Shown here: positions 15,531 to 43,087 of the stretch, one piece after another
How positions within the stretch are numbered: the stretch's first letter is position 1
How the letters are laid out: every line of letters starts with the position of its first letter
Source of the DNA: a bacterium
GTDB lineage: Bacteria > RBG-13-61-14 > DATKZS01
DNA: 64,000 bases
Assembly (NCBI GenBank): GCA_963674965.2
Contig: CAXXFL010000006.1
Location: 480,001-544,000 of the forward strand
Reading direction: 5' to 3'
The notes under the pieces: generated by a model
Database searches by the model: none
Told to the model about the DNA's origin: nothing
Seen by the model: only the letters and a program-made list of their open reading frames with translations
Translations under genes and position numbers: made by a program

Positions 15531-15533
15531 ACC

Positions 15534-18134: not shown

Positions 18135-18150
18135 ATTCAAGGAGATGAAA

Positions 18151-19245: not shown

Positions 19246-19311
19246 AAAGAGACCGCCGTCCGTTACGTTGCGTATCGATTTTTGATTCCGAACCATGTCC
19301 CGAATTATTCA

Positions 19312-19357: not shown

Positions 19358-19396
19358 GCCATTCGGCCTGACAATTCAGATGTATGGAGGGTAACG

Positions 19397-21628: not shown

Positions 21629-21653
21629 TAACGGTAAGCAATGGAGACATGGA

Positions 21654-22831: not shown

Positions 22832-22832
22832 C

Positions 22833-23807
22833 ATGAGCGGGACGCCCCGCGAAAAGACGGAAACCGTTTCCTTCGGATGCCGACCTCACGGCCACGTATT
22901 GACGTCAAAGCATCAACGCGCCAACGAGCGCCGGACATGGTTGGTACTCGGCATTACGCTGGTCACCATGGTTTTGGAAATCGTTTGCGGCCTGCTTTTC
23001 GGATCCATGGCCCTGTTGGCCGATGGCTGGCCCATGGCCAGCCATGCCTTGGCCATGGGCGTCACCGCGCTGGCTTATTATTTGACCCGTAAGCACCAGG
23101 ACGATCCCCTATTTACGTTCGGCGCCGGTAAGATAGGAGACTTGGCGGGGATCGGCAGCGCTCTATTGCTTTGGTTCATCGCGGTCCTTATGGCCTATGA
23201 ATCCATTATCCGGCTTGTTCATCCCGTGACCATACGTTTCGGGGAGGCTATGATGGTGGCCGGCATCGGACTGGCCGTTAATCTTGCCAGCGCGATGATC
23301 CTCAAAGAGCATACCCATGAGGACGAACGAAATCACTGCAATCACGACCATAATATTCGAGCGGCCTATCTTCACGTTCTGGCGGACGCTCTTACTTCCA
23401 TTCTGGCCATCGTGGGACTGGGAGCGGGGATGCTGTGGGGTTGGTCTTTCCTCGATCCGCTGATGGGCATCGTGGGCGCGGCCCTGATCAGTCACTGGTC
23501 CTGGGGCCTGTTGCGGCGGACCGGCAACGTATTACTGGACAGGACAACCGACGAAGGCATGGCCCGCGAGATTTCTGACGCTATCTTTGCTTTTGATGGA
23601 GTCCGCAATGTCGATTTGCACGTATGGAGGGTGGGACCAGGGCATTTCAGTTCCATCGTCTCGCTTATCGCGCCGGACGGGCAAACTCCAGATGATTTCA
23701 AGTCCCGATTATGCAACGTCAGCGGTCTGTCGCACGTGACTATTGAAGTAAATCCATCCGCCGGAAATCAAAACATCAAGAGAGAAAAATATGCCGCCAA
23801 AACGTAA
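22833..23807 (+). CDS. dmeF: CDF family DmeF-like Co/Ni efflux transporter
   Basis: GSMALLADGW, FTFGAGK, His loop, AAYLHVLADALTS, DLHVWRVGPG, SHVTIEV; TM2 His replaced by Pro. Confidence 0.85.
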   Translation: MSGTPREKTETVSFGCRPHGHVLTSKHQRANERRTWLVLGITLVTMVLEIVCGLLFGSMALLADGWPMASHALAMGVTALAYYLTRKHQDDPLFTFGAGKIGDLAGIGSALLLWFIAVLMAYESIIRLVHPVTIRFGEAMMVAGIGLAVNLASAMILKEHTHEDERNHCNHDHNIRAAYLHVLADALTSILAIVGLGAGMLWGWSFLDPLMGIVGAALISHWSWGLLRRTGNVLLDRTTDEGMAREISDAIFAFDGVRNVDLHVWRVGPGHFSSIVSLIAPDGQTPDDFKSRLCNVSGLSHVTIEVNPSAGNQNIKREKYAAKT

Positions 23808-23852
23808 TGGGCGGCTTGCGTGAAGAACGTCTTTCAAGTAAAGGAGCATCAA

Positions 23853-24974
23853 GTGAAAAAAAAGATTTGTGGATCGATCGGAAAACAAAGGTATTCATGC
23901 TTTTGGCTGGTGATTTTGCTTGCAACGTTAAGTTTGTGCGCCTTCTCCTTTAAGGTCGTGACGGCGGCTTCCGTTTACGATTCATGGTCGGCTATTGGAA
24001 AAGTTGCCGCTGAACGAGCCTTGGGCATGATTAAACGGGCGGGAGCAACGCCCGCCAAGGGAAATCTCGTCGTCATCACAAACGCGGGATACGCGGAGGT
24101 GAAAGGGTCCTCCACTCAGGCCGCGCTCGATGGACTGTCGGACGCCGCGGGAGCAAGCAGGGGACGCAATACTCTCGTCGAAGTTCATTCCTCTCCCTGG
24201 TCCCCGCTCTGGTTTGCCGTTTACGATAAAGCCTCGGGTAACTGCGCGTACTTGGAGGTCAATCCGGATGTCGCGGAATTGTCAAAGGATGCATCGAATT
24301 TATTCAAGGTATCGGCGATCGAAAAAATCGACGCGGAACGTCTTTATAAAAACGCCGATGATTATAAAGCTATATTTAAGGAAAAAATATTTGGCGGCAA
24401 TGAGTTCAGGATCATTACCATAGCCAACGCCGTCTCCAAGGGAGCGCCTAACGCGGTCGTCAGGGCCTTCGAGTTCCACGACCACTACTGCCCCGGAGTG
24501 ACGTCGGGCGTCATGATGGCCAACTACCTCAAGAAAAATTTCCCGGCCGGCGATTCCGGATACTTCGTTCATAGCGTCGACCCATGGTGCAAGGAAGACG
24601 CTCTTATTACTCTGCTCAACGCGACGCCCGGTAAAAAAGGCTACGCGGTCAGTTACCCGAGCGACGAGGACAAGAAGGACCTGACGGAGGACGGTAAAAA
24701 AGCTTCTACCATCGTCTATCGCCAGAACAACGAGACCGGAATTTGGGAGGGAATGGTTCTGGCCTTTGACTGGAGCGCCGAGACCGGTTGCGAGCAAACC
24801 GGGAACATGGCGGTGGACAAGCTCTGCGCGGATATGTGGTATCTCGACCGCCTCGACCGCCCCGAGGATTTCGTCAAGGTCCTGAAAACCTTCGAGATGC
24901 CAAAGGACGTCTCGCCAAGAGATTGGGCCAGGCCGGGCGTGGACCCGCTGGAAAAGCTCGGCATGAAAAAATAG
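23853..24974 (+). CDS. Exported tandem FmdE-family protein
   Basis: AGGAG + GTG start, signal peptide, degenerate N-domain (ITNAGY..ALDG..GRNTL) and intact FHDHYCPG..WCKEDA domain. Confidence 0.8.
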   Translation: MKKKICGSIGKQRYSCFWLVILLATLSLCAFSFKVVTAASVYDSWSAIGKVAAERALGMIKRAGATPAKGNLVVITNAGYAEVKGSSTQAALDGLSDAAGASRGRNTLVEVHSSPWSPLWFAVYDKASGNCAYLEVNPDVAELSKDASNLFKVSAIEKIDAERLYKNADDYKAIFKEKIFGGNEFRIITIANAVSKGAPNAVVRAFEFHDHYCPGVTSGVMMANYLKKNFPAGDSGYFVHSVDPWCKEDALITLLNATPGKKGYAVSYPSDEDKKDLTEDGKKASTIVYRQNNETGIWEGMVLAFDWSAETGCEQTGNMAVDKLCADMWYLDRLDRPEDFVKVLKTFEMPKDVSPRDWARPGVDPLEKLGMKK

Positions 24975-25371: not shown

Positions 25372-26799
25372 TTAGCTTTTTTTCATGGGTATGTCCCACT
25401 TCTTCATGTATTTCCATATAGTGGTGTGACTGCATCCCAATCTTCTTCCCACCATTGACTTATTCCAGTCGCATTCCTCAAGGAGATTAACGAGTTCTTG
25501 CCGGGTCATATCTTTTCTTTTTTTCTTTTTCGCGTTTTGTCCGAGGTTGTTGTACTGTATTCTTCTAACCTCGACCGGAATGTCGAAAAGTTCAATCCGG
25601 TTATGCTTGCATATCACGAAGGCGTGCTCGATGGCGTTTTCGAGTTCCCTTATGTTTCCCGGCCAGTGGTACTCCATGAGGACCCTCATTGCTTCCTCGG
25701 AAATGCACGATATATCGCGGTTGTTCTCGCGGTTGAACCTTTTGATAAAGTGGTCGACCAGAAGGGGGATATCGCTTTTATGATCACGCAAAGGCGGCAT
25801 ATGAATCGTGAAAACCTTGAGTCGAAAATAAAGGTCCTCCCTGAACGCTCCCTTTTTTACCAGTTCCTCCAAATTCCTGTTAGTGGCGGCTATGACCCTG
25901 ATGTCGATCTTTCGTTGCCGGGATTCGCCTATCCTCTCGATGGCGTGGTCCTGGAGCACCCGGAGCAGTTTCACTTGGATGACGGGAGATATGTCGCCTA
26001 TCTCGTCGAGCAGGATCGTGCCGCCGTGGGCCTCTTCAAACCTTCCCACCCGGCTTCGAAACGCGCCGGTAAAGGCGCCCTTGACGTGACCGAACAGCTC
26101 GCTTTCAAGCATTGACTCGGGCAAGGCCGAGCAATTTACCATTATCAGCGGGTGCGGCTCCCGGGCGCTTTGATAATGGATGGCCCCGGCGGCCAGTTCT
26201 TTTCCCGTGCCGCTTTCTCCCTGGACCAGGACGGTGGCGTTGCTCGATGCCCCCGCTCTCCTGATGGCGTTATAGACCCTCTTCATGGGGAGACTTTCCC
26301 CAACGATGTTGCCCAGGCTGTGATGCAGTTTTTTATGTTCATTCTCGGCTTTGGCCTTTATCTTTTGAACCGAGGTTATATCCGTCACGCTCTCGACCGC
26401 TCCAATGATCCTGCCGTTTTTATCCTGGATCACGCGGGCGTTTTTAAGCACCGGCACGAACCACCCGTTTTTATGGCGGAGCATGCACTCCATGTCCTTG
26501 ATCTCGCCCTTGACGAAAAGTCCGCACGCTTCGACGTCGCTGGGGCAGACCTCTCCGTTCCTGTACTGGAACTGCAAAAGGCTGGGATGCTTGCCCAGCG
26601 CTTCTTCCCTTGAATAGCCGGTGATGTTTTCCATGCTCTTGTTCCAGAGAATAACGCGCGTAGCCCTGTCTATTACGAAGGCGCCGTCTGGAAAGGTGTC
26701 GATAAGTATTTCGAGAAGAGAAGACTCGAGGTCGTCCTTTATCGATTCCTGAAATTTTCTTAATACTTCCATTTTTTTGTTTTCCGGTATTTTAAGCAA
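25372..26799 (-). CDS. PAS-domain sigma54-dependent enhancer-binding protein (Fis HTH)
   Basis: PAS, GESGTGKE, ESELFGH, GAFTGA, LDEIG, WPGNIREL, C-terminal HTH. Confidence 0.95.
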   Translation of the reverse strand: MLKIPENKKMEVLRKFQESIKDDLESSLLEILIDTFPDGAFVIDRATRVILWNKSMENITGYSREEALGKHPSLLQFQYRNGEVCPSDVEACGLFVKGEIKDMECMLRHKNGWFVPVLKNARVIQDKNGRIIGAVESVTDITSVQKIKAKAENEHKKLHHSLGNIVGESLPMKRVYNAIRRAGASSNATVLVQGESGTGKELAAGAIHYQSAREPHPLIMVNCSALPESMLESELFGHVKGAFTGAFRSRVGRFEEAHGGTILLDEIGDISPVIQVKLLRVLQDHAIERIGESRQRKIDIRVIAATNRNLEELVKKGAFREDLYFRLKVFTIHMPPLRDHKSDIPLLVDHFIKRFNRENNRDISCISEEAMRVLMEYHWPGNIRELENAIEHAFVICKHNRIELFDIPVEVRRIQYNNLGQNAKKKKRKDMTRQELVNLLEECDWNKSMVGRRLGCSHTTIWKYMKKWDIPMKKS

Positions 26800-26982: not shown

Positions 26983-27861
26983 CTAAAACCTGGCGTTTAC
27001 CGCGTCCCTGGGCACGCTGCATATGGACGCGACTTCCCTTGCGTTCTCGCCCATGCACAAGGCAAGAATCTGGTTGTAGTCGAAAACCGGTATACCGTAG
27101 GCGCCGTTTCCGCCGCTCAAATGTTTTTGTACGTTGTCAAGGTGCATGAGGCAGGTTATGCATGAAACCACGATCAAGTCCGCCTTGGTTTCGTTTTTGA
27201 TGGCGTCAAGTTTTTCCTTGGCGTACCGTTGGGCCTCAGGGGCCGAGGTGTTATGAAATCCTCCCGCCCCTCCGCAGCATTGGTACTCCCTGCTGAAGGA
27301 GTCGACCTCAGCGCCCAGGGCCTCGACCAAGTCCCTGAGAATGTGCGGGCGCGCGGGAGGAGAGTCGAAACCGACCAGTTCGCTGGGAAACAAGGTATGG
27401 CACGGGTACTGTACCACGGCGTGGAGGCCCTCGAGGCTCTTGCCGATGGTCCTGGATATCTTGTCAAGCCCCACCTCGTTATACAAAACGTCGGTTATGT
27501 GACGGACCTTGGCCTTGCCCGTCACGCTTCTTCCCGTCGGCTCGAGCAGCTCGTTGACCCGGTCCTTTCTTTTCTCGCTCGATAGAATGTGCTCACGCCC
27601 GGTCTGTAGCGAGCTGTAGCATGATCCACACTCGACGAGCAGGTCCAGCCCTTTTTTTTCGGCCAGGGAAAGGTTCCAGCCGCTCACGGCCAGATGGGAA
27701 TCGTCGTCGTTTGACGGGAAAGTCCCGAAAGCCGGACAACAGACGAAACCCTCCAGGTCCACCAGGTCGACGCCCAGCCGGGGCATGGTCGTTCTTATCG
27801 CCCTCTCCACGTCCGGGCGCAGAGCCGGGGTATTGCATCCCAAGAATAGTCCGATTTCCAT
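26983..27861 (-). CDS. hdrB: Heterodisulfide reductase subunit B-like
   Basis: FLGC, CCPAFG, CGSC, YPCH, CCGG, CITC (two CCG domains). Confidence 0.88.
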   Translation of the reverse strand: MEIGLFLGCNTPALRPDVERAIRTTMPRLGVDLVDLEGFVCCPAFGTFPSNDDDSHLAVSGWNLSLAEKKGLDLLVECGSCYSSLQTGREHILSSEKRKDRVNELLEPTGRSVTGKAKVRHITDVLYNEVGLDKISRTIGKSLEGLHAVVQYPCHTLFPSELVGFDSPPARPHILRDLVEALGAEVDSFSREYQCCGGAGGFHNTSAPEAQRYAKEKLDAIKNETKADLIVVSCITCLMHLDNVQKHLSGGNGAYGIPVFDYNQILALCMGENAREVASICSVPRDAVNARF

Positions 27862-27862
27862 T

Positions 27863-28372
27863 TTATGCACCCTTAAACATGAATTCGTTGTCGCTGATGA
27901 TCTTGGTCTTCATCAGCATTTGTCTGAATTTCTCCAGAAGATCGGGATACTCCCCTAAAACCGGCAGCTTTTCCGGAAGCCCGAGTTCCTTTCTCTGCTC
28001 GGTGTTTCTCTCAACCGGCTGGGTGTATCCCCTGTTATAAATTTCCACGATCGACGGTGGAATCCGAGTGGAATCGTTCGCGCACTGCCACTTTCTGATG
28101 GCCAGACAAAGCTCGAAAGGCTTGACGTCCATGGGACACATTTCCTCGCAGCGCGAGCAGGTCACGCAGGTCCAAGGCGTGTCCTCATCGAGAAGCTCGT
28201 CCTCCATGCCCAGGATGACCATGCGCGCCAGGTTCCGGATGAGAAGCGGAGGGTCCGCGTTTGAAGCCGGGCAGCCGGAGATACAGGCTCCGCAATTGAA
28301 GCAATAGCGCAGGTTGGGATTGTCGTAAACCTCGCTCCATAAATCTTTCTTCGCTTCCTGCAAATCAACCAA
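27863..28372 (-). CDS. hdrC: Heterodisulfide reductase subunit C-like
   Basis: AGGAGG + TTG at 28372; CFNCGACISGCP and CVTCSRCEEMCP. Confidence 0.88.
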   Translation of the reverse strand: MVDLQEAKKDLWSEVYDNPNLRYCFNCGACISGCPASNADPPLLIRNLARMVILGMEDELLDEDTPWTCVTCSRCEEMCPMDVKPFELCLAIRKWQCANDSTRIPPSIVEIYNRGYTQPVERNTEQRKELGLPEKLPVLGEYPDLLEKFRQMLMKTKIISDNEFMFKGA

Positions 28373-28389
28373 GTCGGGACCTCCTGAGT

Positions 28390-31300
28390 TTACAAGACCG
28401 CGCCGACGCTCTCGTCCCTTAATTTCGCGTCGATCACGGCCATGGTTTGTTTTTCGTTCCAGCCTAGGACCTCGGCCGCGTTGTTCGGGCAGCTTACCGC
28501 GCACATGCCGCATGCCTGACAAGCTTCCGGGTCCACCATGATTTGGTTTTTAACCTCGTCGAAGGAGCGGGCGTTGTAGGGACAGACCTCCACGCATCGC
28601 CGGCAGCGGGAACAGAGCGAGTCATGCACCACCGAAACCACCCGGGGCGTGTGAATCTCGCCGCGGGAAAGATACTCGTAGGCCTTTTGCGCCGCGGCCT
28701 CGGCCTGCATTATGGCCTCGTTGACCGTCCGCGGCGAGTGGGCCAGGCCGGCCATGAAGACGCCCAGCCTGTTGGATTCAACCGGCCTCCATTTCGAGTC
28801 GGCCTCGACGAAAAAGCCGTCGGCGTTCAACTCGACGTCAAAGACGCGGGCGAGGGAGGCGTTGGATTCGCTGGGCTCGATCCCGGTGGCCAGGATTACC
28901 CGGTCGGCCGCTATTTCCATGGGCAGGCGCAACACGTGGTCGGTAAATCTCACCACCGGTTTATCGGCCCCGAGCTCGACTTCAGGCTTGGAGTCAAGCT
29001 CGTAATTCACGAAGATAATCCCCTCGCCGCGCGCCTTGGTGTAATATTGCTCGAAGTAACCGTAGGTCATCATGTCCCGGTTCAGAATGAACACTCGCGT
29101 CTCGGGGTTTTTTTCACGGATTTTAAAGGCGTTCTTGAGAGCGCCGGCGCAACACACGCGGCTGCAATATTCCCTTTGTCCCCTCTCGCGGGAGCCGACG
29201 CACTGGATCATGACCACGTTTTCCAAACCCCCGGCGTCGATCTCCCCGGAGGAGAACTTTTTTTCAAACTCCGACTGGGTCAGGACACGGTCGGATTTTC
29301 CATGAGAATATTCATCGGTTTTGCCCTCGCGTCCCCCCGTGGCCAGGATAACGGCCCCGTGCTCGATTTCCTTGGTTTCCCCTCCTCCGACGTTCCTGAT
29401 CGTCGAGACGAAACATCCCAGCGCCCCGTCGCTTCTGGCGACCTCGTGGTTGAAATGTACCTCGATGCCGTCGCTGTCCTGGACCTCATTGATCAAACTT
29501 TCCACCATGCCGGAGGTGTTCAGGTTGTCAACCGTGTATTGAAGCTCCGTTCCCGCGTGCCCTCCCAGCCGTCTGGACTTCTCGATGAGGTGAACAAAAA
29601 CGCCTCGCTCCGCCAGGGAAAGGGCCGCCTTCATGCCGGCCACTCCTCCTCCCACCACCAGGGCCGACTGGTTGATGGGAACGATATTTCGATGAAGGGC
29701 CCTGGCAAGCCTGAGCTTTTCCTTGTTGACCTGAATCTCCTCGACGATTTTTCCGATCCAGCCCTTGTCATCCGGATCGGACAAGCCGTTTCTCGCTATA
29801 TCCAGCAGGTTGAAGACCTCGACCAGGGAATAATTGAAGCCCGCGTCGAGCGCGATATGCTTTAGTTTCCGCTTGTACACGTAGGGCAGGCAGGCGCCGA
29901 AGAGCAGCCGGTTGCACTTGGTTTTGCGGAGTATTTCCTCGAGTTCCTCCCTTTGCTCCTCCCGGCACAGGGAATCCAGGATATGGACCTCGTCCACCCC
30001 GTGCAGGCCCTTTAGCTTGGCCCCCAGAGGCTCGAGGTCGAGACCCTCGGGTATCTTCTCGTCCTTGCAGCGGCAAAGGATGGCGGCGACGCGAGGTTGT
30101 TCGCGATCCACGTCCTTTTCCTCCACTTCCTTTTCCATTATTCTGGGCGCGTTGATACGCCTCAAAAGCTTGGAAGCTTCCCCGGAGGCCGCGATGCCGC
30201 TGGTGATGGCCTCGCTGATATCGGTCAGTCCCATCAGGGAACCGCAGATATATACGCCTTCCTTGACCAATTTCACCTTGCTGAAGTCCTCGTTTTTAAG
30301 AAGACTCGAATCCGTAACCTCCGTGTCCAGCAACTCGGAGATTTTTTTATGGTCCTCGAAGGGAGCCTGTCCGGTCGAGAGCACCACCATGTCGAACTCG
30401 TCCCTCTTGAACTCCCCGGCGCGATTGTCGTAATACCTGATAGTAAGGGTCCCGTCCGGGTCCTTGAGTACTTCCTGCGCCCTGCACCTGACCAGCTTGA
30501 CGCCGTATTCCTTTTCGGCCATTTCGCGATAGCGGTAAAAATCCTTTCCAAAGGTTCGCATGTCCATGTAGAAGATGGTGGTTTCCATTCCGGGTCCGCC
30601 TTCCTCGTGGGCCAGCACGGCCTCCTTGAGCGCGAACATGCAGCAGATGGAGGAACAGTAATCCCTCCCGTGGCGGCGGTTCCTGGACCCCACGCACTGT
30701 ATCCATGCTATGCGCTTGGCCGGCCTTCCGTCCGAGGGGCGGTGAATTTCCCCGTCGTAAGTCCCGGACCCGCTCAATATGCGCTCGAAGGCCAGGGAGG
30801 TCACGACGTCCTCCGACACGGTGTAAGGCTTGGCGTCGTCCTGGGTACCGGGGTCGTAAAGAGAGACGCCGGAGGCCATAATGATCGCGTCGACTTCAAC
30901 CAGTTCTATCTCGTCCCGGGCCTCGAGGTCGATGGCGTCGGTAGGACAGACCTTGAGACACTCGCCGCACTTGTCGCAGGCGTCGACGTCCACGACCAGC
31001 ATCTGGGGCACGTTGTGGGGCACGGGCTGGTAAATGGCCTTCCTGTCGGTGAGCCCGTGGTTGAACTCGTCCGGCGCCGTCACGGGGCAGGCCTCGACGC
31101 ACTCGCCGAACCCGTTGCAGATGTCGGGATTCACGTGGCGGGCGCGTTTCAGGAGTTCCACTTGGTATTCACCGGCGCTTCCTTTTATTGACTTCACCTC
31201 GGTAAAGGGCATTATTTCGATGTTGTCGTGGTAAAGGCTTTTTCTCATGCAGTGCTGGGAGGCATATTCTCTTCCCACCATGGGCAGCATCCTGCACATG

Positions 31301-31476
31301 CCGCAATGGTTGGTGGGAAACTGGTGGTCGAGTTTGGCGAGTATTCCCCCGATGTGGGGAGAGGACTCGGCTAAAATCACCTTATAACCCGTTTCAGCGA
31401 GCTCGAGCGCGGCCTTGATCCCGGCGATTCCAGCCCCCACCACGAGCACCGTGCCGACTCTTTCCTGGTCTGCCAT
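28390..31476 (-). CDS. hdrA: Double-module HdrA-like flavo-FeS protein (BamE-like)
   Basis: Two GxGxAG FAD motifs, two QCVGSR..YCS..CC motifs, internal and C-terminal ferredoxin domains. Confidence 0.9.
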   Translation of the reverse strand: MADQERVGTVLVVGAGIAGIKAALELAETGYKVILAESSPHIGGILAKLDHQFPTNHCGMCRMLPMVGREYASQHCMRKSLYHDNIEIMPFTEVKSIKGSAGEYQVELLKRARHVNPDICNGFGECVEACPVTAPDEFNHGLTDRKAIYQPVPHNVPQMLVVDVDACDKCGECLKVCPTDAIDLEARDEIELVEVDAIIMASGVSLYDPGTQDDAKPYTVSEDVVTSLAFERILSGSGTYDGEIHRPSDGRPAKRIAWIQCVGSRNRRHGRDYCSSICCMFALKEAVLAHEEGGPGMETTIFYMDMRTFGKDFYRYREMAEKEYGVKLVRCRAQEVLKDPDGTLTIRYYDNRAGEFKRDEFDMVVLSTGQAPFEDHKKISELLDTEVTDSSLLKNEDFSKVKLVKEGVYICGSLMGLTDISEAITSGIAASGEASKLLRRINAPRIMEKEVEEKDVDREQPRVAAILCRCKDEKIPEGLDLEPLGAKLKGLHGVDEVHILDSLCREEQREELEEILRKTKCNRLLFGACLPYVYKRKLKHIALDAGFNYSLVEVFNLLDIARNGLSDPDDKGWIGKIVEEIQVNKEKLRLARALHRNIVPINQSALVVGGGVAGMKAALSLAERGVFVHLIEKSRRLGGHAGTELQYTVDNLNTSGMVESLINEVQDSDGIEVHFNHEVARSDGALGCFVSTIRNVGGGETKEIEHGAVILATGGREGKTDEYSHGKSDRVLTQSEFEKKFSSGEIDAGGLENVVMIQCVGSRERGQREYCSRVCCAGALKNAFKIREKNPETRVFILNRDMMTYGYFEQYYTKARGEGIIFVNYELDSKPEVELGADKPVVRFTDHVLRLPMEIAADRVILATGIEPSESNASLARVFDVELNADGFFVEADSKWRPVESNRLGVFMAGLAHSPRTVNEAIMQAEAAAQKAYEYLSRGEIHTPRVVSVVHDSLCSRCRRCVEVCPYNARSFDEVKNQIMVDPEACQACGMCAVSCPNNAAEVLGWNEKQTMAVIDAKLRDESVGAVL

Positions 31477-31486
31477 TTCTCGTCTC

Positions 31487-32620
31487 CTAGCCGGCCTGTC
31501 CGGTCACTTCGGCAAACTCGTCCTCGAAGAACACCGAAAGCGGCTGAGGTTCTTCCAGGTCTCTTCCCGGCTCGTACTCGAACCTGGCCTGGGTCCTCAT
31601 GGCCATGGACCGGAACAAGGGAGCCAGCTCGATGCCGTTGGGGCACGCGCTCGAGCACTGGCCGCAGCCGACGCACAAGGCGCTCATGTGCAGCATGCGC
31701 GTCATATGAAACATGAGGGTGTCGCTGGGAATCTTGAAAAAACCGTGCTTGTCGGCCCAGTTCATGTATTTGTCCCCGGGGTGCCGGAAGGTATCGGTCA
31801 CGAACACGCATTCCTTGCAATAGCAAACCGGGCAGGCCACCCGGCAGTTGTAGCAGTTAACGCATCCGGCCAGATGCTCCTCCAGCTTTCCCACCTCGTC
31901 GATCTTCTCATCGAACTCGGCGAGGACCGCGTCTCTTGTCTCGACTCGCCTGCTAACGATCTCCTCGACGGCTTTTTGCCTTTTGGCCGGTTCCTCTTCC
32001 GTTTTCATGCCCAGCTTTTCGCGGACTTCCCGGCCTTTTTCGCTGATCCACTCGAGGTAGACCTCCTCGGGTCCCGACCCGATGACGCAAAGGTTTATAT
32101 CCGCGTTTTGGGGCACGGGAAACTCGCACATCCCGCAGGCGGGAGCCAACGCCGGCTCCCCCTCTGACGCCTCTTTGTTCGCCAGGGCCGACTCCAGGAA
32201 TTGAGTCGTGGTCGCGCCATTCCTCGCCAGTTTCAGGAAATCCTTGTTTTCGAACCTTCCCAGGCAGTCCATTCCGATCAGAATGAGGCCGTCAAGGTTG
32301 GCCTGGTGCAGTTTCACCAGCTCGATAAGGGCCCGTAACTCGCACGATCTCATGACCACGGCCAGTGGCCTTCCCGACGGCGTGCTTGTCAAACTCGAAA
32401 CCAGCTTGGCCGAGGAAAGAGGCGCCACCGGCGCGAAGGGGTCCGCGGCGTCGCATCCGACCGGTTCCGATATCAGGGTCGGCATGACGCCTTTCTCGGG
32501 CTGGCGGGCCGGGACCAGTATCGCGTCGACCACTTTTTTCTCCAGCAAACTCTTAAAGAATCTGCCGACTTTTTTATTCAGGTTTCCTTTTCCCTCGGAG
32601 AGCCTGCTGAATTCTCCCAT
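31487..32620 (-). CDS. FrhB/FdhB-like 4Fe-4S protein
   Basis: RSCELRA, GMDCLG, ACGMC, CVNCYNCRVACPVCYCKEC, CVGCGQCSSACP. Confidence 0.85.
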   Translation of the reverse strand: MGEFSRLSEGKGNLNKKVGRFFKSLLEKKVVDAILVPARQPEKGVMPTLISEPVGCDAADPFAPVAPLSSAKLVSSLTSTPSGRPLAVVMRSCELRALIELVKLHQANLDGLILIGMDCLGRFENKDFLKLARNGATTTQFLESALANKEASEGEPALAPACGMCEFPVPQNADINLCVIGSGPEEVYLEWISEKGREVREKLGMKTEEEPAKRQKAVEEIVSRRVETRDAVLAEFDEKIDEVGKLEEHLAGCVNCYNCRVACPVCYCKECVFVTDTFRHPGDKYMNWADKHGFFKIPSDTLMFHMTRMLHMSALCVGCGQCSSACPNGIELAPLFRSMAMRTQARFEYEPGRDLEEPQPLSVFFEDEFAEVTGQAG

Positions 32621-32689: not shown

Positions 32690-33205
32690 CTACGTGCGCT
32701 GCGCCTGCAGCTCGGCGGACTCGAGGTCCTCGAGTTTCACGTCGTCGCCTCCTCCATCCAGCACCGTTAAAAGGGCCCTTCTGCGCGCCCAGTCCTTCTT
32801 GATGGGGCTGGGACCGAGCTTCTTTAAGTTCTCGGTCATCTCGTCGGCGTACTTTTGAAACATGACGCCGTCGCTGGCGGCCACCCATCTGAGCCAGAAT
32901 CGCTCCTCCTCGATGCCGAACTTTTCCAGGAGCTCCTGGACCATGGCCATGCGCCTTCTGGCCTTCAGGTTGCCGTTGATGTAATGGCAGTCGCCGGGCC
33001 AGCATCCGCCGATAAACACTCCGTCCGCGCCCTCGATAAAGGCCTTGAGCACGTACATGGGGTCAACCATTCCCGAGCACATGACGCGAATGATCTTCAC
33101 GTTTTGCGGGTAGCTCAGCCTCGAGCTTCCCGCCAGGTCGGCGGCCGTGTAGGTGCACCAATTGCATAAAAAGGCCACTATTTTCGGTTCGAATTCTTCT
33201 GACAT
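32690..33205 (-). CDS. mvhD: MvhD-like [2Fe-2S] subunit
   Basis: FEPKIVAFLCNWCTY, RVMCSG, GCWPGDCHY. Confidence 0.93.
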   Translation of the reverse strand: MSEEFEPKIVAFLCNWCTYTAADLAGSSRLSYPQNVKIIRVMCSGMVDPMYVLKAFIEGADGVFIGGCWPGDCHYINGNLKARRRMAMVQELLEKFGIEEERFWLRWVAASDGVMFQKYADEMTENLKKLGPSPIKKDWARRRALLTVLDGGGDDVKLEDLESAELQAQRT

Positions 33206-33217: not shown

Positions 33218-36200
33218 CTAGCTAGCTAAAAGTCCTTCAATCTCGCTGAAAACTTGTTTCTGAGTGAAGTGTCTAATATCAGCCGCCCCGCTGGGGCAAT
33301 GAGCGGCGCAGCTTCCACATCCCCTGCATACGGCCTCGTTGATAACGCTTATCTTCCTCAACTCGTCGAACTCTATGGCCCCGTAGGGGCAAAGGCCTAT
33401 ACAGGCCTGGCATCCTATGCAGACGTCCTCGTCTATATGGCTTATCATGGGCTCGACCACCACCTTGCCCAGGGTGGAAAGGGCCTGCGCCTCGCTGGCG
33501 GCCGCCTTGGCCTGGGCCACCGAGTCGGGGATATCCTTGGGCCCCTGGCACGCGCCCGCCAGGAACACCCCGGAGGTGGGGGTCGAGACCGGACCCAGCT
33601 TGGGGTGTTCCTCCATGAAGAAGCCGTCCTTGCTCAGGGAGAGACCGAAAGTCCGGGCCACGTCCTGAGCGTCATCCCTGGCCTCCATGGCCGTGCAGAG
33701 AACGACCATCTCGACCGGGACCCTGACGGTCTTGCCGATAAGAGTGTCCTCCGCCTTGACGATCAGCATGCCCTCTTCCTCGGGACTTTCGGCCTTGTCC
33801 GTAACCTCCGTGGCCTTGCCCCGGATAAAGCGGACCCCCTCGTCCTGCACCCGCTGGTAGAACTCCTCATAGCCCTTGCCAAAGCAGCGCATGTCTATAT
33901 AGAAGTTGAATACCTGGGTTTCATGGCCGCACTTGTCCTTGACCAGGTGCGCCATCTTCAAGGCGTACATGCAGCAGGTGCGCGAGCAGTATTCGTGGTA
34001 GTTCTTGTCCCGGCTGCCTATGCAGTGGAGAAAAGCCACGCTCTGGGGCGGATCGGAGTACTTGAATTTTTCCACCGGGTCTTTTTTCAGTATCTTGCCG
34101 GAGGTCGGTCCCGTCGCGTTCGAGAGCCTTTCGAACTCGAGATTAGTTATCACGTTGGCGTACCTGGAGTAGCCGTAGTTTTCCATGGGCGTCGGGTCCA
34201 TGACGTCGAATCCGGTGGCCACGATAATCGAGCCCACGTCGAGCTCGACCACCTGGTCTTTCTGGTCGTGCTCGATGGCCCTCGCCTCGCAGGACGGAAC
34301 GCAGAGCTTGCACTCGCAGCAGACGCCGCACGAGACGCACCTTCCCGCCTCGGCCCTCGCCTGTTCCTCGGTAAAGGCCAGCTCGACCTCGTCAAAGCTT
34401 TTGATGCTTTCCGCCGGGTCGAGCTGGGGCGGGGCCATCCTGGCGGTTTTTGCCAGGTCCTTGGGTATTTCGCCCCAATTTCGGCCGGTGGGCCTTTGCG
34501 GCCTGTCCTCGGCCAGGTCGTCTCCCCGCAGGTAGCGGCCGATGGATATGGCCGCCTCCCTGCCCGCGGCCACGGCCTCGACCACCAGCGACGGCCCGGT
34601 GAAAACGTCTCCACCGGCGAACACTCCCGGCATGGTGGTCTGCATGGTCGTCGGGTCCACCCGCATCAACCCCCTTGACGTCGTTTCGATCCCCTCCATT
34701 CCCTTGACGCAGGCCAGGTCCGGCTTCTGTCCTATGGCCGGGATCAGGGTGTCCGCGTCCATCATTTCGAGGGCGCCTTCTATGGGGACCGGGCGGCGGC
34801 GTCCAGAGTCGTCGGGCTCTCCCAGTTCCATTTTCTGAATCTCGATCCGCTTGAGCGCGCCTTTTTTATCCGCCACCGCCTTGTTGGGGGCGGCAAGGAA
34901 ATGGAACTCCACGCCTTCGCGCTCCGCCGCCTCGATTTCCTCGAGGTTGGCCGGCATCTCGGCGCGGGTCCGCCTGTAAAGGACGGTAACCTTGTCCGCG
35001 CCCAGGCGAAGCGAAACGCGGGCCGCGTCGATGGCGGAGTTTCCGCCGCCCACCACCACCACGCGCTTGCCGACCTTGGCCTTGCCCTCAAGGTTGCACT
35101 CGCGCAGGAACGTGATCGCGTTAACGACGCCCTTCGCGTCTTCCCCCTCGATGCCGAGGCTCATGTCCTTGTGCGCGCCGGTCGCTATGAAGACCGCCTT
35201 GTAGCCTTCCTTTAACAGCGAGTTGATATCTCTTCCCTCGCCGATGGGGGTCTCGGTCTTGATTTCCACGCCCATTCGTTTCACGTACTCGAGCTCTTTC
35301 TCGATCTCCTCCGGCGGCAACCTGTAATCGGGAATCCCGGTTCGAAGCATGCCGCCCACCGCGGGCAGGGCCTCGAAAATGGTCGGGTGATAGCCCTCGC
35401 GGGCGAGAAAATATGCGCATGATATGCCGCCGGGCCCGGACCCTATCACGGCGACCTTCTCCTCGGGGGGCTTTTCGTCTATCTCCGGGAGCGGAAAGGT
35501 TTTCCAGTCGACCTGGTCGGCGGCGAACCTTTTCAGGGCCCTTATGGCGAGGGGGGCGTCCACTTCCGCCCTTCTACAAGCGCCCTCGCACGGCGCCGGG
35601 CACACGCGCCCGAGCACCCCCGGGATGGGAAGGTTCTCGAGCATTATCTTGACGGCCTGGTCGTAATTCCCCTCCTTGATCATGGTCACGTAGCCCTGCA
35701 CGTTGGTACCCGCCGGGCAGGTCTGCACGCAGGGTCCGCGGTCGCGCTTGTCGATGGCGAAATTGATGGGCACGGCCTGGGGAAAAGGCCTGTATATCGC
35801 TTTTCTGAGCTGGGTCCCCACGTCCCATTCGTTGGGCAGCGAAACGGGGCATTGCTTGGCGCACTCGCCGCACCCCGTGCACTTGTTCGCGTCCACGTAT
35901 TGCGCCTTCCTTTTGACCTTGACCGTGAAGTTCCCCACGAAGCCGCTAACCTCCTCGACCTCGCTGTGGGACATGATCTCGATGTTGGGATGCTGTCCCG
36001 CCGAGACGAGCTTGGGCGTACCGATACAGGCCGCGCAGTCCATGGTGGGAAAGGTCTTGTCATACTGAAGCATGTGACCGCCGATGGTCCCCTGCCTCTC
36101 GATGAGATAGACCTTGTAGCCGGCGGCGGCGACGTCCAGCGACGCCTGGATTCCCGCTATGCCTCCGCCCACCACCATGGTGTTGGGATTGACCGGAAAG

Positions 36201-36631
36201 GTCTCGGGAAAAAGGTCGGTCTGGTAGCGAACCCTGTTAATCCCGGCCCTGCTCAGCGCCTTGGCCTTCTCGGTCGCCTCGTCCTCGTCCAGGGTAACCC
36301 AGGAAACGTGTTCCCTGACGCACACGTGATGGAAGGAACGGAATGGGTTCAGTCCGGCCCTCTGGCACGCGGCCCTGAAGGTGTTCTCATGCATGCGGGG
36401 GGAGCACGACGCGACCACCACCCGGGTAAGCCCGTGTTCCTTGACGTCCTTTTCGATCAATTCCTGGCCGGGGTCGGAGCACATGAACAGGTAATCGCGG
36501 GAAACGACGACCCCGGGCAGTGAGCCTATATACTCCGCCACTTCCCCGCACCTGACCTTGAAGGCGATATTGATCCCGCAATGACAGATATAAAAACCGA
36601 TCCTCTCCTGGCTAAGTGAAATTACGCTCAT
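33218..36631 (-). CDS. HdrL-type protein: HdrA with inserted GltD/NfnB-like NAD(P)H oxidoreductase module
   Basis: CHCG, CSP, DKTFPTMDC; insert PCVQTCP, GRVCPAPCE, GSGPGG, GGGNSA..YRRT; then HCIGSR..CSRTCC, HPKL, GPKDI and ferredoxin. Confidence 0.9.
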   Translation of the reverse strand: MSVISLSQERIGFYICHCGINIAFKVRCGEVAEYIGSLPGVVVSRDYLFMCSDPGQELIEKDVKEHGLTRVVVASCSPRMHENTFRAACQRAGLNPFRSFHHVCVREHVSWVTLDEDEATEKAKALSRAGINRVRYQTDLFPETFPVNPNTMVVGGGIAGIQASLDVAAAGYKVYLIERQGTIGGHMLQYDKTFPTMDCAACIGTPKLVSAGQHPNIEIMSHSEVEEVSGFVGNFTVKVKRKAQYVDANKCTGCGECAKQCPVSLPNEWDVGTQLRKAIYRPFPQAVPINFAIDKRDRGPCVQTCPAGTNVQGYVTMIKEGNYDQAVKIMLENLPIPGVLGRVCPAPCEGACRRAEVDAPLAIRALKRFAADQVDWKTFPLPEIDEKPPEEKVAVIGSGPGGISCAYFLAREGYHPTIFEALPAVGGMLRTGIPDYRLPPEEIEKELEYVKRMGVEIKTETPIGEGRDINSLLKEGYKAVFIATGAHKDMSLGIEGEDAKGVVNAITFLRECNLEGKAKVGKRVVVVGGGNSAIDAARVSLRLGADKVTVLYRRTRAEMPANLEEIEAAEREGVEFHFLAAPNKAVADKKGALKRIEIQKMELGEPDDSGRRRPVPIEGALEMMDADTLIPAIGQKPDLACVKGMEGIETTSRGLMRVDPTTMQTTMPGVFAGGDVFTGPSLVVEAVAAGREAAISIGRYLRGDDLAEDRPQRPTGRNWGEIPKDLAKTARMAPPQLDPAESIKSFDEVELAFTEEQARAEAGRCVSCGVCCECKLCVPSCEARAIEHDQKDQVVELDVGSIIVATGFDVMDPTPMENYGYSRYANVITNLEFERLSNATGPTSGKILKKDPVEKFKYSDPPQSVAFLHCIGSRDKNYHEYCSRTCCMYALKMAHLVKDKCGHETQVFNFYIDMRCFGKGYEEFYQRVQDEGVRFIRGKATEVTDKAESPEEEGMLIVKAEDTLIGKTVRVPVEMVVLCTAMEARDDAQDVARTFGLSLSKDGFFMEEHPKLGPVSTPTSGVFLAGACQGPKDIPDSVAQAKAAASEAQALSTLGKVVVEPMISHIDEDVCIGCQACIGLCPYGAIEFDELRKISVINEAVCRGCGSCAAHCPSGAADIRHFTQKQVFSEIEGLLAS

Positions 36632-36645: not shown

Positions 36646-37785
36646 TTAAACGGACTGATACAGCAATTCAGCCACGTCCAGAATTTTCATCTCATCTTCG
36701 CCTAGACCCAACGACTTGAGGGCGTCCTCAAACATGATCATGCAGAAGGGACAGGCGGTGGCGATGACCTCCGCGCCCACTTCCTGGGCTTCTCGAACGC
36801 GAAGCACGCTGAAGCGCTTTTCCTTTTCGATCTCGGCCCAGATTCCTCCCCCCCCGCCGCCGCAGCAGAGGCTGAAACGCCGATTGCGCGGAAACTCCAC
36901 CGGCTCGAGTCCGGGGATGCTTTGCAAAACCCGGCGCGGCTCCTCGTAGACGCCGTTGTGACGGCCCAGGTAGCAGGGGTCGTGATATGCTACCTTCAAG
37001 GGAACTTCCTTTTGGGGAACAAGCTTTTCTTTTTGGATCAACTCGTCGAAAACCTGGACGTAATGCAGGGACCGGTAATCCCCGGAGTAATGCTTCTTGA
37101 ACATGTTCATGCAGTGCGGAGAACTGGTGATAATGCTTTTCACGCCTTTTTTCTCGAACAGTTCCGAGTTCGAGTTTTCCAGGGTCGAAAATATTTCAAA
37201 TCCGCCGCACTTATGGACCTGGTCCCCGCAGCAGCTTTCCTCGTTTCCGATTATTCCCATGGACGCGCCGGATTTCAGTAGCAGCTCGGCCATTTCCTTG
37301 ACGACCTTTTTGTTCCTGCCGTCAAAGGCGTGGGTGCAACAGGCGTAAAACAGGTTTTCGGTTTCCCCGGCCTCGAACCGGGGAAGTTCGAGGCCCTGGG
37401 CCCATTGCTCGCGGTCGTCGCGCGAGTTGCCCCAGGGGTTTCCTTCGTTTCTCAGGCTTCCGAAGGGCGTCCTGAACAGGGGCGGAACTATTCCTCCCTC
37501 TATCATCACGCTCCTGGTCGAGCGCATGACGTCCACCATGTCAACCCCTCTCGGGCATCTGTCCACGCACGTTCCGCAAGTCACGCAGTTCCAGAGGCCA
37601 TCCTGCTCGTAGCCTTCTATTCCCATGCTGGCCAGCCGTAAAAGCTGGCGGGGGTTGAAATCATCAACGAGGTTCCAGGGGCACACGCTGGTGCAGGTGC
37701 CGCACTGGATGCATATTTTCATGGTTTCTCCGCCGATATCCATTATCATGTCGGCTATTTCGAGCATTGGAGCGATTGCGGTCAT
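36646..37785 (-). CDS. BamD/HdrD-like protein (2x4Fe-4S plus two CCG domains)
   Basis: CIQCGTCTSVCPW, CVTCGTCVDRCP, GNPW, ESCCG, SSPHC, YHDPCYLGR, CCGGGGG, ACPFC. Confidence 0.88.
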   Translation of the reverse strand: MTAIAPMLEIADMIMDIGGETMKICIQCGTCTSVCPWNLVDDFNPRQLLRLASMGIEGYEQDGLWNCVTCGTCVDRCPRGVDMVDVMRSTRSVMIEGGIVPPLFRTPFGSLRNEGNPWGNSRDDREQWAQGLELPRFEAGETENLFYACCTHAFDGRNKKVVKEMAELLLKSGASMGIIGNEESCCGDQVHKCGGFEIFSTLENSNSELFEKKGVKSIITSSPHCMNMFKKHYSGDYRSLHYVQVFDELIQKEKLVPQKEVPLKVAYHDPCYLGRHNGVYEEPRRVLQSIPGLEPVEFPRNRRFSLCCGGGGGGIWAEIEKEKRFSVLRVREAQEVGAEVIATACPFCMIMFEDALKSLGLGEDEMKILDVAELLYQSV

Positions 37786-37815: not shown

Positions 37816-38679
37816 TTACATTCCATTCCTGTCGGGGGGGCATATGCTTCCGATGTTCAATACCGAACCGGTCGAGGATATCTCGCCTTTATAAAGAAGC
37901 ATGTGGCGGACGAGCTTGATAAAGGAATCGCGCGTGGTCGGATGCTCCGCGTATTTTCCGTGCCTTAAAATGACCGCTTCGCGGAATGAGTCCTCGTAAA
38001 CCCGGGTCGGCTCCAAAGGACCCACCGAAACAAGGATGGGGATGCCGCACAAATTCCTGTCTCGCTGCAGGGCAAAAAGGGTCTTGTTTCCCTCCTTGTT
38101 GTGCATGCTGATGTTCAGAAATATCAGGTCCGGCCTGTTTTGTTTTATCTGATCCATCGCGCTTTTGTAGTCGTTCGCGATCGCGACGTTATTGAACTTG
38201 GCTTCCTTAAGGATGGTGATCACGCAGAAGGTTATGTCGGGATCGTCGTCCACCACCATGATTTCCTTGTGAAGAAGCATCTTTTCCCTTTCGCGGTCCA
38301 GCATTTCCTCCCAGACCACGTCCGTTTGTTGCTCGGGATCATAGTATCCGGTCACGGCGTTTAACTCCTTTGCCAGGGTTTTTTCCGGCTGAACCCCGGA
38401 AAATCTCTTCAGTTCCGAACCGTTGCGAAAAATTACCACCGTGGGAACGTTGTGGATGTTATACTTGGATTTCGCGGTCGGAACGTTTTCTATATCAACG
38501 CTGCCGAAATGAACGTTCTCCTTGAAAAGTATGGAAACCTTGTCCGCTATACTGTTCTGTATGTTGCAGGCCGCCGACCACGGCACTCCAAAAGTCATAA
38601 GAGTAACGCCCTTGCTGGATATTATTTTTGAAAACGACTCGTAATCCGTAAGAAAATCCATCTTGTCTATTTCAGGCAT
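37816..38679 (-). CDS. Thioredoxin(SxxC) / pseudo-receiver fusion protein
   Basis: PWSAAC and cis-Pro NVPT..F.NG thioredoxin fold; VVDDDP..PDLIFLNISM receiver with Asn at the phospho-Asp position. Confidence 0.8.
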   Translation of the reverse strand: MPEIDKMDFLTDYESFSKIISSKGVTLMTFGVPWSAACNIQNSIADKVSILFKENVHFGSVDIENVPTAKSKYNIHNVPTVVIFRNGSELKRFSGVQPEKTLAKELNAVTGYYDPEQQTDVVWEEMLDREREKMLLHKEIMVVDDDPDITFCVITILKEAKFNNVAIANDYKSAMDQIKQNRPDLIFLNISMHNKEGNKTLFALQRDRNLCGIPILVSVGPLEPTRVYEDSFREAVILRHGKYAEHPTTRDSFIKLVRHMLLYKGEISSTGSVLNIGSICPPDRNGM

Positions 38680-38724: not shown

Positions 38725-38740
38725 GGCAATTGTTGTGCCG
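38725..38740 (-). promoter_or_regulatory. sigma54 -24/-12 promoter of the Hdr-like operon
   Basis: Minus strand CGGCACAACAATTGCC (GG-N10-GC), ~45 bp upstream of ATG 38679. Confidence 0.8.
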
Positions 38741-38887: not shown

Positions 38888-38980
38888 AATTGAAACGGAG
38901 CTATTTTTGCAACCGTTCCTTAAGGGTAACGGTTTCCCCGCGTTTCCCTATATGCTTGAGAGTACCGACTTCTAACCCTC

Positions 38981-39226
38981 TCAACCTTCTTTGCTCTTTT
39001 CAATTTTCATCTTGATTTTCGAACGCTCGATTTCCAGGTCCACCCACTCGTCAATTAGCTTCTTGAAACGGCGATAGGCCGCGTTCTGCGCTTTGATCTC
39101 CCGCGCGAACTCCGGGCGAATATATTCGGTCCGCCCTTTGCCCCGGTGAGTGTAGCTGAGTTGATGGTAAGTCTTCTCGGCTCCTCGCTTCATGGATAAG
39201 AACCATAAGGCCGGGCATCCCTCCAT
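38981..39226 (-). pseudogene. DUF6788-like IS accessory protein remnant
   Basis: YHQLSYTHRGKGRTEYIR..AYRRFKKLIDEWVDL resembles the C-terminal half; no transposase adjacent. Confidence 0.55.
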
Positions 39227-41738: not shown

Positions 41739-43087
41739 GGGTCTTCCCAAGAATCTGTGGGTGTTCTTTGACATAGTTTAGTTGAAAAGCACGGTCGTTT
41801 CAGGCTAATAGGGTTATGCGAAAACAATCCTGAAGCCTGAAGGAGTCGACCGTGCTTGTAGAGAGTCTTGTACGAGAAACGCTTGGTGTCAAGGATCACA
41901 AGGTTAAGAGCGTCAGCGGAGACGCGGTGGGGCTTACGGTTCTTATGGATCGCAAGAAGCTTCGGAAGCTCACCTGCTCTTGTTGCGGCTCTCGAGCTTG
42001 GGTTTACGACACGCTTGCCGAGAGGACCTGGCGTCATGTTCCGTTGTGGGGCATCCCCGTGACCATCGTTTACAGCCCGCGCCGGGTGAACTGCCCAAAT
42101 TGCGGCGTCAAGGTCGAGCAGGTCCCGTGGGGGATGGGCAAAAGTCGGCTCTCCCTGCCGCTGATCATCGTGCTCGCCGCCTGGGCCAGGCTCCTGGCCG
42201 TCGGCGTCGTGGCCGATCTCTTCGGCTTGAGTTGGTCCACGGTGGGGGCGGCGGTCAAGCACGCGGTGGCTTACGGCCTCGAACACCGCGACGTTTCCGG
42301 CGTGCTTTACATCGGGATCGACGAGGTCTCTCGCAAAAAAGGCCACGTCTATCACACCCAGGTTTACGAGATCGGCAAGAGGCGGCGTCTTTTGTGGTCC
42401 GGAGAGGGGCGCAAGAAAGAGACGCTGGAACGTTTTTTCGATGAACTTGGCGAGGAGGGGGTTGCCGCCATCCAGGGCGTCTGTTGCGACATGTGGGCGC
42501 CTTACGTGGACGTCATCAAGGAGAAGGCGCCCAAGGCGGTCCTTGTTTTTGACAAATTCCACCTTGTCCGCCACTTGAACGACGCCGTGGACAAGGTGAG
42601 AAAAAAGGAAGCCGAGAAGCTCAAGGAAAAGGACCCGGGGCTTTTGAAGGGCACGAAATACATCTGGCTCAAAAACCCCTGGAACCTGACGCCCAAACAG
42701 AAACAGCGGCTTGGTTACCTGGAGAGCATGAACCTTAAGATCAACCGCGCTTACCTTCTCAAGGAGAGCTTCCGTGAATTGTGGTCCTATCAGAGCAAGG
42801 GTTGGGCCAAGCGTTATTTGAACAAGTGGTTCTGGTGGGCGACCCACTCTCGCCTGGAACCGATGCGTGATTTTGCCTGGCTTCTTCGCCGTCATGAGGA
42901 AGACGTCCTTAATTGGTTCAACGTTCCGATCGATAATGGGGCGGTGGAGGCAATGAACAACAACGCCAAGGCCATCAGTCACCGAGCCAGAGGTTACAGG
43001 AGCGAAAAATGGTTCACCCTGATACAATTACATTGCCTGGGTCAAATGCCCATGCCGGAATCCACCCACAGATTTGCGTGAGGAGCC
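41739..43087 (+). mobile_element. ISL3-family insertion sequence (1349 bp)
   Basis: Imperfect 24-bp IRs GGGTCTTCCCAAGAATCTGTGGGT / GGCTCCTCACGCAAATCTGTGGGT (18/24); 8-bp TSD GATTTTTT at 41731-41738 and 43088-43095. Confidence 0.93.
41852..43081 (+). CDS. ISL3-family transposase
   Basis: CSCCG..CPNCG zinc finger, IGIDE, CCDMW, FDKFH, NGAVEAMN, RARGYR. Confidence 0.95.
   Translation: MLVESLVRETLGVKDHKVKSVSGDAVGLTVLMDRKKLRKLTCSCCGSRAWVYDTLAERTWRHVPLWGIPVTIVYSPRRVNCPNCGVKVEQVPWGMGKSRLSLPLIIVLAAWARLLAVGVVADLFGLSWSTVGAAVKHAVAYGLEHRDVSGVLYIGIDEVSRKKGHVYHTQVYEIGKRRRLLWSGEGRKKETLERFFDELGEEGVAAIQGVCCDMWAPYVDVIKEKAPKAVLVFDKFHLVRHLNDAVDKVRKKEAEKLKEKDPGLLKGTKYIWLKNPWNLTPKQKQRLGYLESMNLKINRAYLLKESFRELWSYQSKGWAKRYLNKWFWWATHSRLEPMRDFAWLLRRHEEDVLNWFNVPIDNGAVEAMNNNAKAISHRARGYRSEKWFTLIQLHCLGQMPMPESTHRFA

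Follow-up and report, generated by a model that had tools for sequence, protein, structure and literature searches.

The first gene of an Hdr operon in the window, the 64,000-nucleotide stretch of bacterial DNA analyzed here, encodes a fusion of a thioredoxin domain and a receiver domain. Judging by the residues that have been lost, neither half is capable of its canonical chemistry. Aspartate-less receivers (ALRs) have been described before, as have SxxC thioredoxins; their combination represents a rare, undescribed ALR-type variant, which is probably regulatory. We regard the chances as even that the protein is a phosphorylation-independent, Cys-based redox adaptor that dsr-bearing anaerobes express under a predicted sigma-54 promoter. 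A first-pass annotation of this DNA had offered such an adaptor beside a DsrC-like protein thiol partner of the downstream reductases. The adaptor is also the best reading here; the DsrC-like alternative found no support.

Architecture and conservation of the fusion protein

Both halves of the protein were matched by Pfam above the cut-off, the N-terminal one by PF00085 (Table 1) and the C-terminal one by Response_reg, PF00072 (residues 140-215, E 1.5e-12). In predicted models the former resembled thioredoxins (Z 17.4, rmsd 1.5, 104 aligned) and the latter DivK (Z 16.8, rmsd 2.0, 123 aligned). Only these two families matched, and neither a DNA-binding effector nor an enzymatic output domain was found in the fusion. 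The full-length predicted model left the arrangement of the domains unset (pTM 0.51), and a Foldseek search with it gave only thioredoxins among the matches listed. The final 20-24 residues had pLDDT values <50 in both predicted models.

Table 1. Features of the fusion gene, its upstream region and the downstream operon (positions in the window)
Feature	Position	Strand	Basis
Sigma-54 -24/-12 promoter-like site (GG-N10-GC), 61 nt before ATG	38726..38740	(-)	conserved position
Candidate enhancer (upstream activator) sequence	38891..38931	(-)	conserved block; function inferred
Thioredoxin/pseudo-receiver fusion gene	37816..38679	(-)	287 aa ORF; Pfam; profile search
Thioredoxin domain (residues 13-107); W34, C38 and P79 at the cis-Pro position kept	38359..38643	(-)	PF00085 E 2.8e-13, above cut-off
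W-S-A-A-C motif; family form W-[S/A]-x-x-C in 17/17 rows	38566..38580	(-)	alignment
Predicted linker helix (residues about 115-137); conserved W123, E130, E132	38269..38337	(-)	model and alignment
Aspartate-less receiver (residues 138-263); N189, V219, H246 on the D/T/K sites	37891..38268	(-)	alignment and model
C-terminal tail, predicted low-confidence/flexible; invariant Cys280 (37840-37842)	37819..37890	(-)	alignment; pLDDT <50 in both models
HdrD-like (4Fe-4S dicluster and CCG domains)	36646..37785	(-)	family matches
HdrA of the HdrL type, carrying a glutamate-synthase-like NAD(P)-binding insertion	33218..36631	(-)	family matches
MvhD/FlpD	32690..33205	(-)	family match
FrhB/FdhB-like Fe-S protein	31487..32620	(-)	PF04432 under cut-off; Fer4 domains
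Large HdrA	28390..31476	(-)	family matches
HdrC-like, start uncertain	27863..28390	(-)	family matches
HdrB-like (CCG)	26983..27870	(-)	family matches
PAS-AAA+-HTH sigma-54 activator (bEBP), likely operon activator	25372..26799	(-)	family matches, context

The characteristic motifs are W34-S-A-A-C38, FLN189 and H246-P247; further cysteines reside at positions 152, 211 and 280. Motifs, Pfam and models thus all agreed with the first-pass annotation, which had described a WSAAC thioredoxin fused to an Asn/His receiver with three more Cys, one of them in the C-terminal tail. Alignment with 14 canonical receivers disclosed the exchanges D to N189, K to H246 and T/S to V219, the last of which had not been noticed before. 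The thioredoxin half has lost the attacking Cys, the Pro of the CGPC motif and the equivalent of Asp26 (T29), which activates the remaining Cys in thioredoxins. Since the Asp26-equivalent and the motif Pro are missing and Trp34 and Pro79 are kept, the half shows the pattern of a docking module; the roles of these residues we take to be those in the E. coli thioredoxin.

The losses are shared by the whole family, whose alignment comprised 20 rows, several of them close kin (counts refer to the rows spanning each site). Of the features of a canonical thioredoxin (TIGR01068), fold and cis-Pro loop are present, Pro79 occurring in 18/18 covering rows. The WCxxC dithiol is absent, the position of the lost Cys being occupied by Ser in 13 and by Ala in 4 of 17 rows, and the fusion scored 53.3 bits against a cut-off of 96.8. 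Likewise, the receiver fold is retained and none of the Asp, Thr/Ser and Lys residues needed for phosphorylation is kept: the acceptor site is Asn and the Thr site Val in all 19 rows, and His (11), Gln (6) or Trp (2) stands at the Lys site. The protein therefore falls under the definition of an ALR, a receiver domain without the phospho-accepting Asp. CxxC and the phospho-Asp are missing from every member, even those with only about 38% identity, and the earlier statement that canonical phosphorylation and dithiol exchange are precluded extends to the family. For SxxC this agrees with CnoX, whose reductase activity came back when the Cys was put back (as given in the available text of PMC10998233).

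Three cysteines are invariant, Cys38 (17/17), Cys152 (18/18) and Cys280 (19/19). Cys152 is located on receiver helix 1 and was evidently gained, since the 14 aligned canonical receivers have Ala or Phe there. Residues 218-263, corresponding to beta4-alpha4-beta5-alpha5, make up the most conserved stretch of the protein. Hence, among the residues whose conservation had been questioned, Asn189 and these cysteines are fixed and Ser35, His246 and Cys211 vary. Several candidate residues could be discarded on this basis: Ser35 as a nucleophile or phosphorylation site (Ala in 4/17 rows), selenocysteine at the same site (TCN/GCC codons in 9/9 loci), His246 as a functional residue (Gln or Trp in 8/19 rows) and Cys211 (1/19 rows, private to the window protein).

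A single-sequence search yielded 15 relatives among 381 candidates. When 7997 sequences were scored with a profile, 17 clusters with the fusion architecture stood out at E <= 7e-85; the first match beyond the family was a plain receiver at 7e-19, which argues for an architecture that is more than chance. An index-free search of 1.84 billion representatives recovered two full-length members and two fragments only. Longer fused forms gave nine matches, all large receiver-bearing proteins, mostly kinases, and no family member, which weighs little as evidence.

The two broken active sites of the window copy could in principle stem from local decay of what were once an ordinary thioredoxin and an ordinary response regulator. 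This explanation can practically be dismissed: reading frames are intact, the identical losses occur in all members to about 38% identity, and no ortholog has retained CxxC and Asp. In trees of 33 rows each (midpoint rooting for drawing only), the thioredoxin halves grouped in a single supported clade apart from the outgroups used, and so did the receiver halves. Among ten pairs from five loci dN was 0.13-0.23 and dS at least 1.17 or saturated, with both domains constrained. The resulting dN/dS of about 0.16 or less, a check that had been called for, indicates that the family is under purifying selection. In the receiver tree the members without hdr linkage branch first, with a support short of the starred mark.

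We found no description of a thioredoxin-receiver fusion in the literature searched, which covered few subscription papers. In the six supplementary files of an ALR survey (Pfam 26 era), a search showed no Thioredoxin/PF00085 architecture, the nearest being DSBA-REC-GGDEF. CnoX/YbbN of E. coli, an SQHC thioredoxin with TPR, shares the Ser in place of the attacking Cys and the missing reductase activity and acts through another Cys and its fused domain (PMC10998233, available text). Unlike CnoX, the fusion has no TPR and a receiver as C-terminal half, and the window protein has no Cys63-equivalent. KaiB-receiver fusions of the ESM Atlas also unite a thioredoxin-like fold with a receiver and gave the top feature matches (0.91-0.92). 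With 153-158 of 256 shared features, under the mark of 170, they are a lead only, and KaiB (PF07689) did not match the fusion at E 0.01. These KaiB-receiver clusters belong to Acidobacteriota and Myxococcota.

Linkage to the Hdr cassette and to dsr genes

The fusion gene is the first of the operon and lies 30 nt ahead of hdrD. From the fusion gene through hdrB, gaps do not exceed 69 nt, and the bEBP gene follows 183 nt further (Table 1; HdrL as defined in the accessible text of PMC2702500). Ten loci with genomic context were compared; the members P0002, P0003, P0008, P0010 and P0012-P0015 were left out. In seven of them (window, L001, L002, L040-L043) hdrD lies directly 3' of the fusion gene, at a distance of 28-34 nt in six and of 128 nt in one. 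Three divergent members are not linked to hdr. One is divergent from ETF genes (L003) and another has a hydrolase-like gene on one side and membrane/glycosyltransferase-like genes on the other, as labeled by inspection (L044). The gene of the third (G418) is split across two contig ends within a dsr island. The fragmented assembly containing L003 (G013) has no close HdrD or HdrB (29% and 27%), yet another hdr cluster is present. Just downstream of the fusion gene in L044 (2574-2626), a 15-nt motif occurs three times at 19-nt spacing.

The HdrB subfamily of the window (60-76%) was encountered in 5 of 401 sampled Desulfobacterota genomes, four of which display the full cassette order. None of the five contains the fusion, the completeness of these genomes not being given. 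The closest fusion-free cassette (G257; HdrB 76%, HdrD 68%) is flanked instead by canonical receivers and kinase(s). Thus, the fusion is not present wherever an HdrL/HdrABC-MvhD cassette is. It is not a core Hdr component, and its linkage to hdr is real, not obligate. The presumed hdr linkage was borne out for the main clade and failed for the divergent members and the Desulfobacterota cassettes.

In the phylum of the host, a close HdrD orthologue (75-76%) was detected only in those 3 of 13 genomes that carry the fusion. An orthologue of the bEBP (78-79%) is confined to exactly the same three, following hdrB in each, which indicates that the whole cassette travels as one unit in this phylum. 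Elsewhere in the host genome (G000:C2:630660-630974), partial copies of the window hdrL and frhB-like genes, with 91% and 96% identity, adjoin one another; they are a remnant or an assembly duplicate.

The carriers for which a genome was available amount to five assemblies from two small phyla (L043 and L044 left out). All five contain dsrA, which is present in 10 of the 26 genomes of these phyla; accordingly, the fusion occurs in 5 of 10 dsrA-positive and in 0 of 16 dsrA-negative genomes (Fisher p 0.004, a value that is overstated because kin genomes are not independent). The host itself possesses dsrAB and a canonical DsrC with a two-Cys arm.

Hosts with dsr genes have in DsrC a small thiol protein whose C-terminal arm bears Cys, and in this respect DsrC recalls the fusion. 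One could imagine the fusion as a DsrC-like substrate of HdrD/HdrB, in which Cys280 on a swinging tail forms a disulfide with Cys152 or Cys38 that is reduced by Hdr. The position of hdrD in seven of ten loci, the flexible Cys-bearing tail, the restriction to dsrA-positive hosts and the close HdrD orthologue found in the host phylum only with the fusion would suit such a role. DsrC has an unrelated fold, however, and related hdr cassettes do not require the fusion. PF04358 did not match the fusion (its seven matches in the host genome lie elsewhere), and the tail harbors one Cys instead of the two conserved C-terminal Cys of DsrC. The same HdrB/C subfamily manages without the fusion in 5/5 Desulfobacterota genomes including G257, the host has its own two-Cys DsrC, and the three divergent members are unlinked, one of them in a genome without close HdrD/HdrB. 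Moreover, in L136 (G342:C121:243-13000) hdrA-hdrC-hdrB follow straight after dsrC itself within a dsr operon. We consider the substrate role very unlikely. The fusion-free cassettes, the unlinked members, the host DsrC and L136 leave the DsrC-like thiol partner proposed in the first-pass annotation without support, and an obligate DsrC-like role is unlikely on account of the first three.

The arrangement in L136 in its own right suggests DsrC as the substrate of this type of HdrB. Three tandem double-DsrC-domain proteins without a C-terminal Cys arm were also seen in the host (G000:C1:588137-588796, C2:303471-304208 and C6:66102-66755), the second with a sigma-54-like site upstream of its gene.

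The surroundings likewise invite the idea of an accessory protein that would use its invariant Cys to hold a metal, a persulfide or an Fe-S cluster and would help in the assembly or repair of the cluster-rich Hdr/CCG enzymes. Monothiol glutaredoxins have non-catalytic thioredoxin docking domains, and thioredoxin domains of Grx3/PICOT were among the sequence and fold matches. The fusion has three invariant Cys and heads an operon of Fe-S proteins; the G418 member lies among CCG/DsrK-TmcB-like genes and the L003 member diverges from ETF genes. On the other hand, all five genomes with a related cassette manage without the fusion, and L044 has no Fe-S neighbors in the ORFs read. The three Cys reside in three separate parts of the protein and form no cluster motif, and signaling is the better match for a receiver fold whose output face is conserved. 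Such a function is, in our estimation, rather improbable.

Promoter region, PAS activator and origin of the two halves

Using the sigma-54 -24/-12 consensus, we found a single GG-N10-GC match in the whole window, namely the one upstream of the fusion gene. By count it is not significant (0.21 expected; 19 of 100 shuffles reach one), and its weight comes from the conserved position. The GG-N10-GC site occurs in seven of ten loci (window, L001, L002, L040, L041, L043, G418), sigma-54-like sites lying 57-76 nt before the fusion start. Counting the TTGT variants in L042 and L003, nine of ten loci have a predicted site; in L044 a promoter-like site occurs only at -274, possibly by chance. In the host genome, which contains rpoN, the exact motif turns up at a rate of about 0.001 per 400 nt.

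About 160-210 nt before the promoter site, tandem palindromes resembling TGTTAC-N6-GTAACA were detected in 7/7 hdr-linked upstream regions, with 2-4 GTTAC/GTAAC half-sites per region versus 0.4-0.8 in shuffles. In the three non-hdr loci there are no half-sites, and a scan of the host genome with the strict pattern brought up no other clear site. Three features that the first-pass annotation had passed over, namely the palindromes, the sigma-54 site and the tie to the PAS-bEBP subfamily, point to a regulatory module. In the G418 genome the fusion abuts another PAS-bEBP, within the dsr island. No bEBP is adjacent in the DNA examined of L003 and L044, and the best bEBP of G013 is only 41% identical. 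Since these loci have no close bEBP and the non-hdr loci no palindromes, no single bEBP is common to the fusion family. Co-folding of the fusion with residues 20-415 of the cassette bEBP gave a score of 0.00, which in the absence of folded controls counts neither for nor against a contact.

Abutting the candidate enhancer of the window is a DUF6788 ORF (38981-39226). A transposase-like ORF, identified by inspection, follows further upstream (41852-43081), and the GC content drops to 49% over 38-42 kb. Downstream of the bEBP (14189-24974), TonB/ExbB, ABC and TonB-receptor genes make up a probable metal-uptake locus, again by inspection, in which two proteins have FHGH/FHDH-CPG motifs.

The cassette activator recalls the OrpR-type PAS-bEBP regulons of sulfate reducers, where sigma-54 operons are likewise paired with an activator whose PAS domain bears Cys. 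The redox sensor of OrpR from Desulfovibrio is a 4Fe-4S cluster that its PAS domain binds through C52/C61/C65 (PMC8359166, accessible text). Unlike the OrpR system, the loci studied here have another palindrome, and the first Cys position is occupied by Pro in the cassette bEBP; no Trx-receiver accessory is seen for OrpR in that text. In three cassettes the PAS domain keeps C85, C92 and C105, and Pro and Tyr replace two Cys of the thioredoxin-linked relatives described below.

The best-matching thioredoxin paralogue of the host (WCAPC, G000:C1) is oriented divergently to a bEBP that shares 54% identity with the cassette bEBP, and its locus has its own sigma-54-like site and similar half-sites. 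A profile of the eight top thioredoxin matches, one of which was a fusion fragment, was run on 301 Desulfobacterota genomes and detected relatives in five at E <= 1e-30. All five are CxxC-intact, and four of them adjoin a bEBP 51-55% identical to that of the window, again with similar half-sites. In L151 of the host (G000:C1:605600-609600), a CxxC-intact thioredoxin, a small Cys-containing ORF and metV/metF-like genes (labeled by inspection) lie behind a sigma-54-like site, divergent from a Cys-rich PAS-bEBP with 54% identity to that of the window; this Trx-bEBP pair is met again in L157-L160. Standalone thioredoxins with WSAPC or WSSPC (P0057, P0095, P0139, P0163) also appeared among the matches and possibly constitute a non-catalytic subfamily. 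The Ser may accordingly predate the fusion, the tree leaving the order open.

Among receivers, the closest relatives of the C-terminal half are single-domain proteins that share its long beta4-beta5 insert; several of them lie in hdr/dsr clusters, and in contrast to the fusion they keep D, T/S and K. The best family match of this half was to the DVU0259/DivK-like single-domain response regulators (NF045717), at 50.2 bits and thus far under the 160-bit cut-off. The nearest canonical receivers are rarely hdr-linked, 4 of 116 loci matching any cassette protein (many of the loci are short). As far as such comparisons go, the gene history points to a sigma-54/PAS-bEBP module more than to Hdr catalysis.

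The same relationships can be reconciled with a pure scaffold or inhibitor without thiol chemistry, e.g., a decoy for a histidine kinase or the bEBP, with Cys of structural function. The catalytic residues of both halves are all lost, including the Asp26-equivalent, the receiver half goes back to single-domain receivers whose genes sit next to kinase genes in redox clusters, and WSxPC thioredoxins exist on their own. What is hard to explain structurally is the gained Cys152 together with an invariant Cys280 in an otherwise variable, predicted flexible tail. We therefore judge a role without thiol chemistry unlikely, though worth keeping in mind.

The fusion as a putative redox adaptor

For the redox adaptor, which we prefer, the following course of events is conceivable. 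The thioredoxin half, with its docking surface (W34, P79) kept, would dock onto a thiol protein and leave it unreduced. A change at Cys152 and at Cys280 in the flexible tail, be it oxidation, persulfidation or the uptake of a metal, would alter the beta4-alpha4-beta5-alpha5 face of the receiver and thereby tune a putative partner. The likeliest partner would be a regulator of the operon, either the PAS-bEBP or a DVU0259-like signaling protein, and the outcome a feedback on Hdr/Dsr electron flow.

A Cys-dependent conformational switch of this kind would have a precedent in RitR, an ALR of Streptococcus pneumoniae with Asn at the phospho-Asp site, in which a Cys located away from the pocket serves as the redox switch (PMC4395418 and PMC5965902, available text). 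Unlike RitR, which has a DNA-binding domain and one Cys, the fusion has an N-terminal thioredoxin and three invariant Cys. Some points count against the adaptor. Membership of a bEBP regulon does not make the fusion the regulator of that bEBP, invariant Cys can be structural, many alignment rows are close kin, the family as a whole shares no single bEBP, and the protein, as far as its domains can be recognized, is devoid of a DNA-binding or enzymatic output domain.

A bolder reading, which we hold to be a long shot, takes the fusion as a sensor of the DsrC/protein-persulfide redox pool that controls the sigma-54 activator of the cassette. The dead thioredoxin would hold an oxidised sulfur carrier without reducing it and transmit its state to Cys152/Cys280; the pseudo-receiver would then control the bEBP, whose PAS domain has lost two cysteines of its own. 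The distribution in dsrA-positive genomes only, the Cys pattern of the bEBP and a reported pull-down of DsrC and QmoB by Trx1 in Desulfovibrio (accessible text of bioRxiv 10.1101/2024.09.27.615472) are compatible with it, and it is on account of the pull-down that we keep this reading open.

The reach of the fusion is limited, since it is rare (17 clusters; five assemblies from two small phyla) and stands outside the Hdr core. The sensing of the thiol/DsrC redox state and the regulation of Hdr-like complexes are poorly understood in dissimilatory sulfur metabolisers. Here the protein is small and soluble and has three invariant cysteines, and a promoter (predicted), an enhancer and an activator (both candidates) are at hand, so that a laboratory strain could serve to reconstruct the circuit. 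If the fusion did sense DsrC, it would constitute a new route coupling the DsrC cycle to transcription in sulfite reducers.
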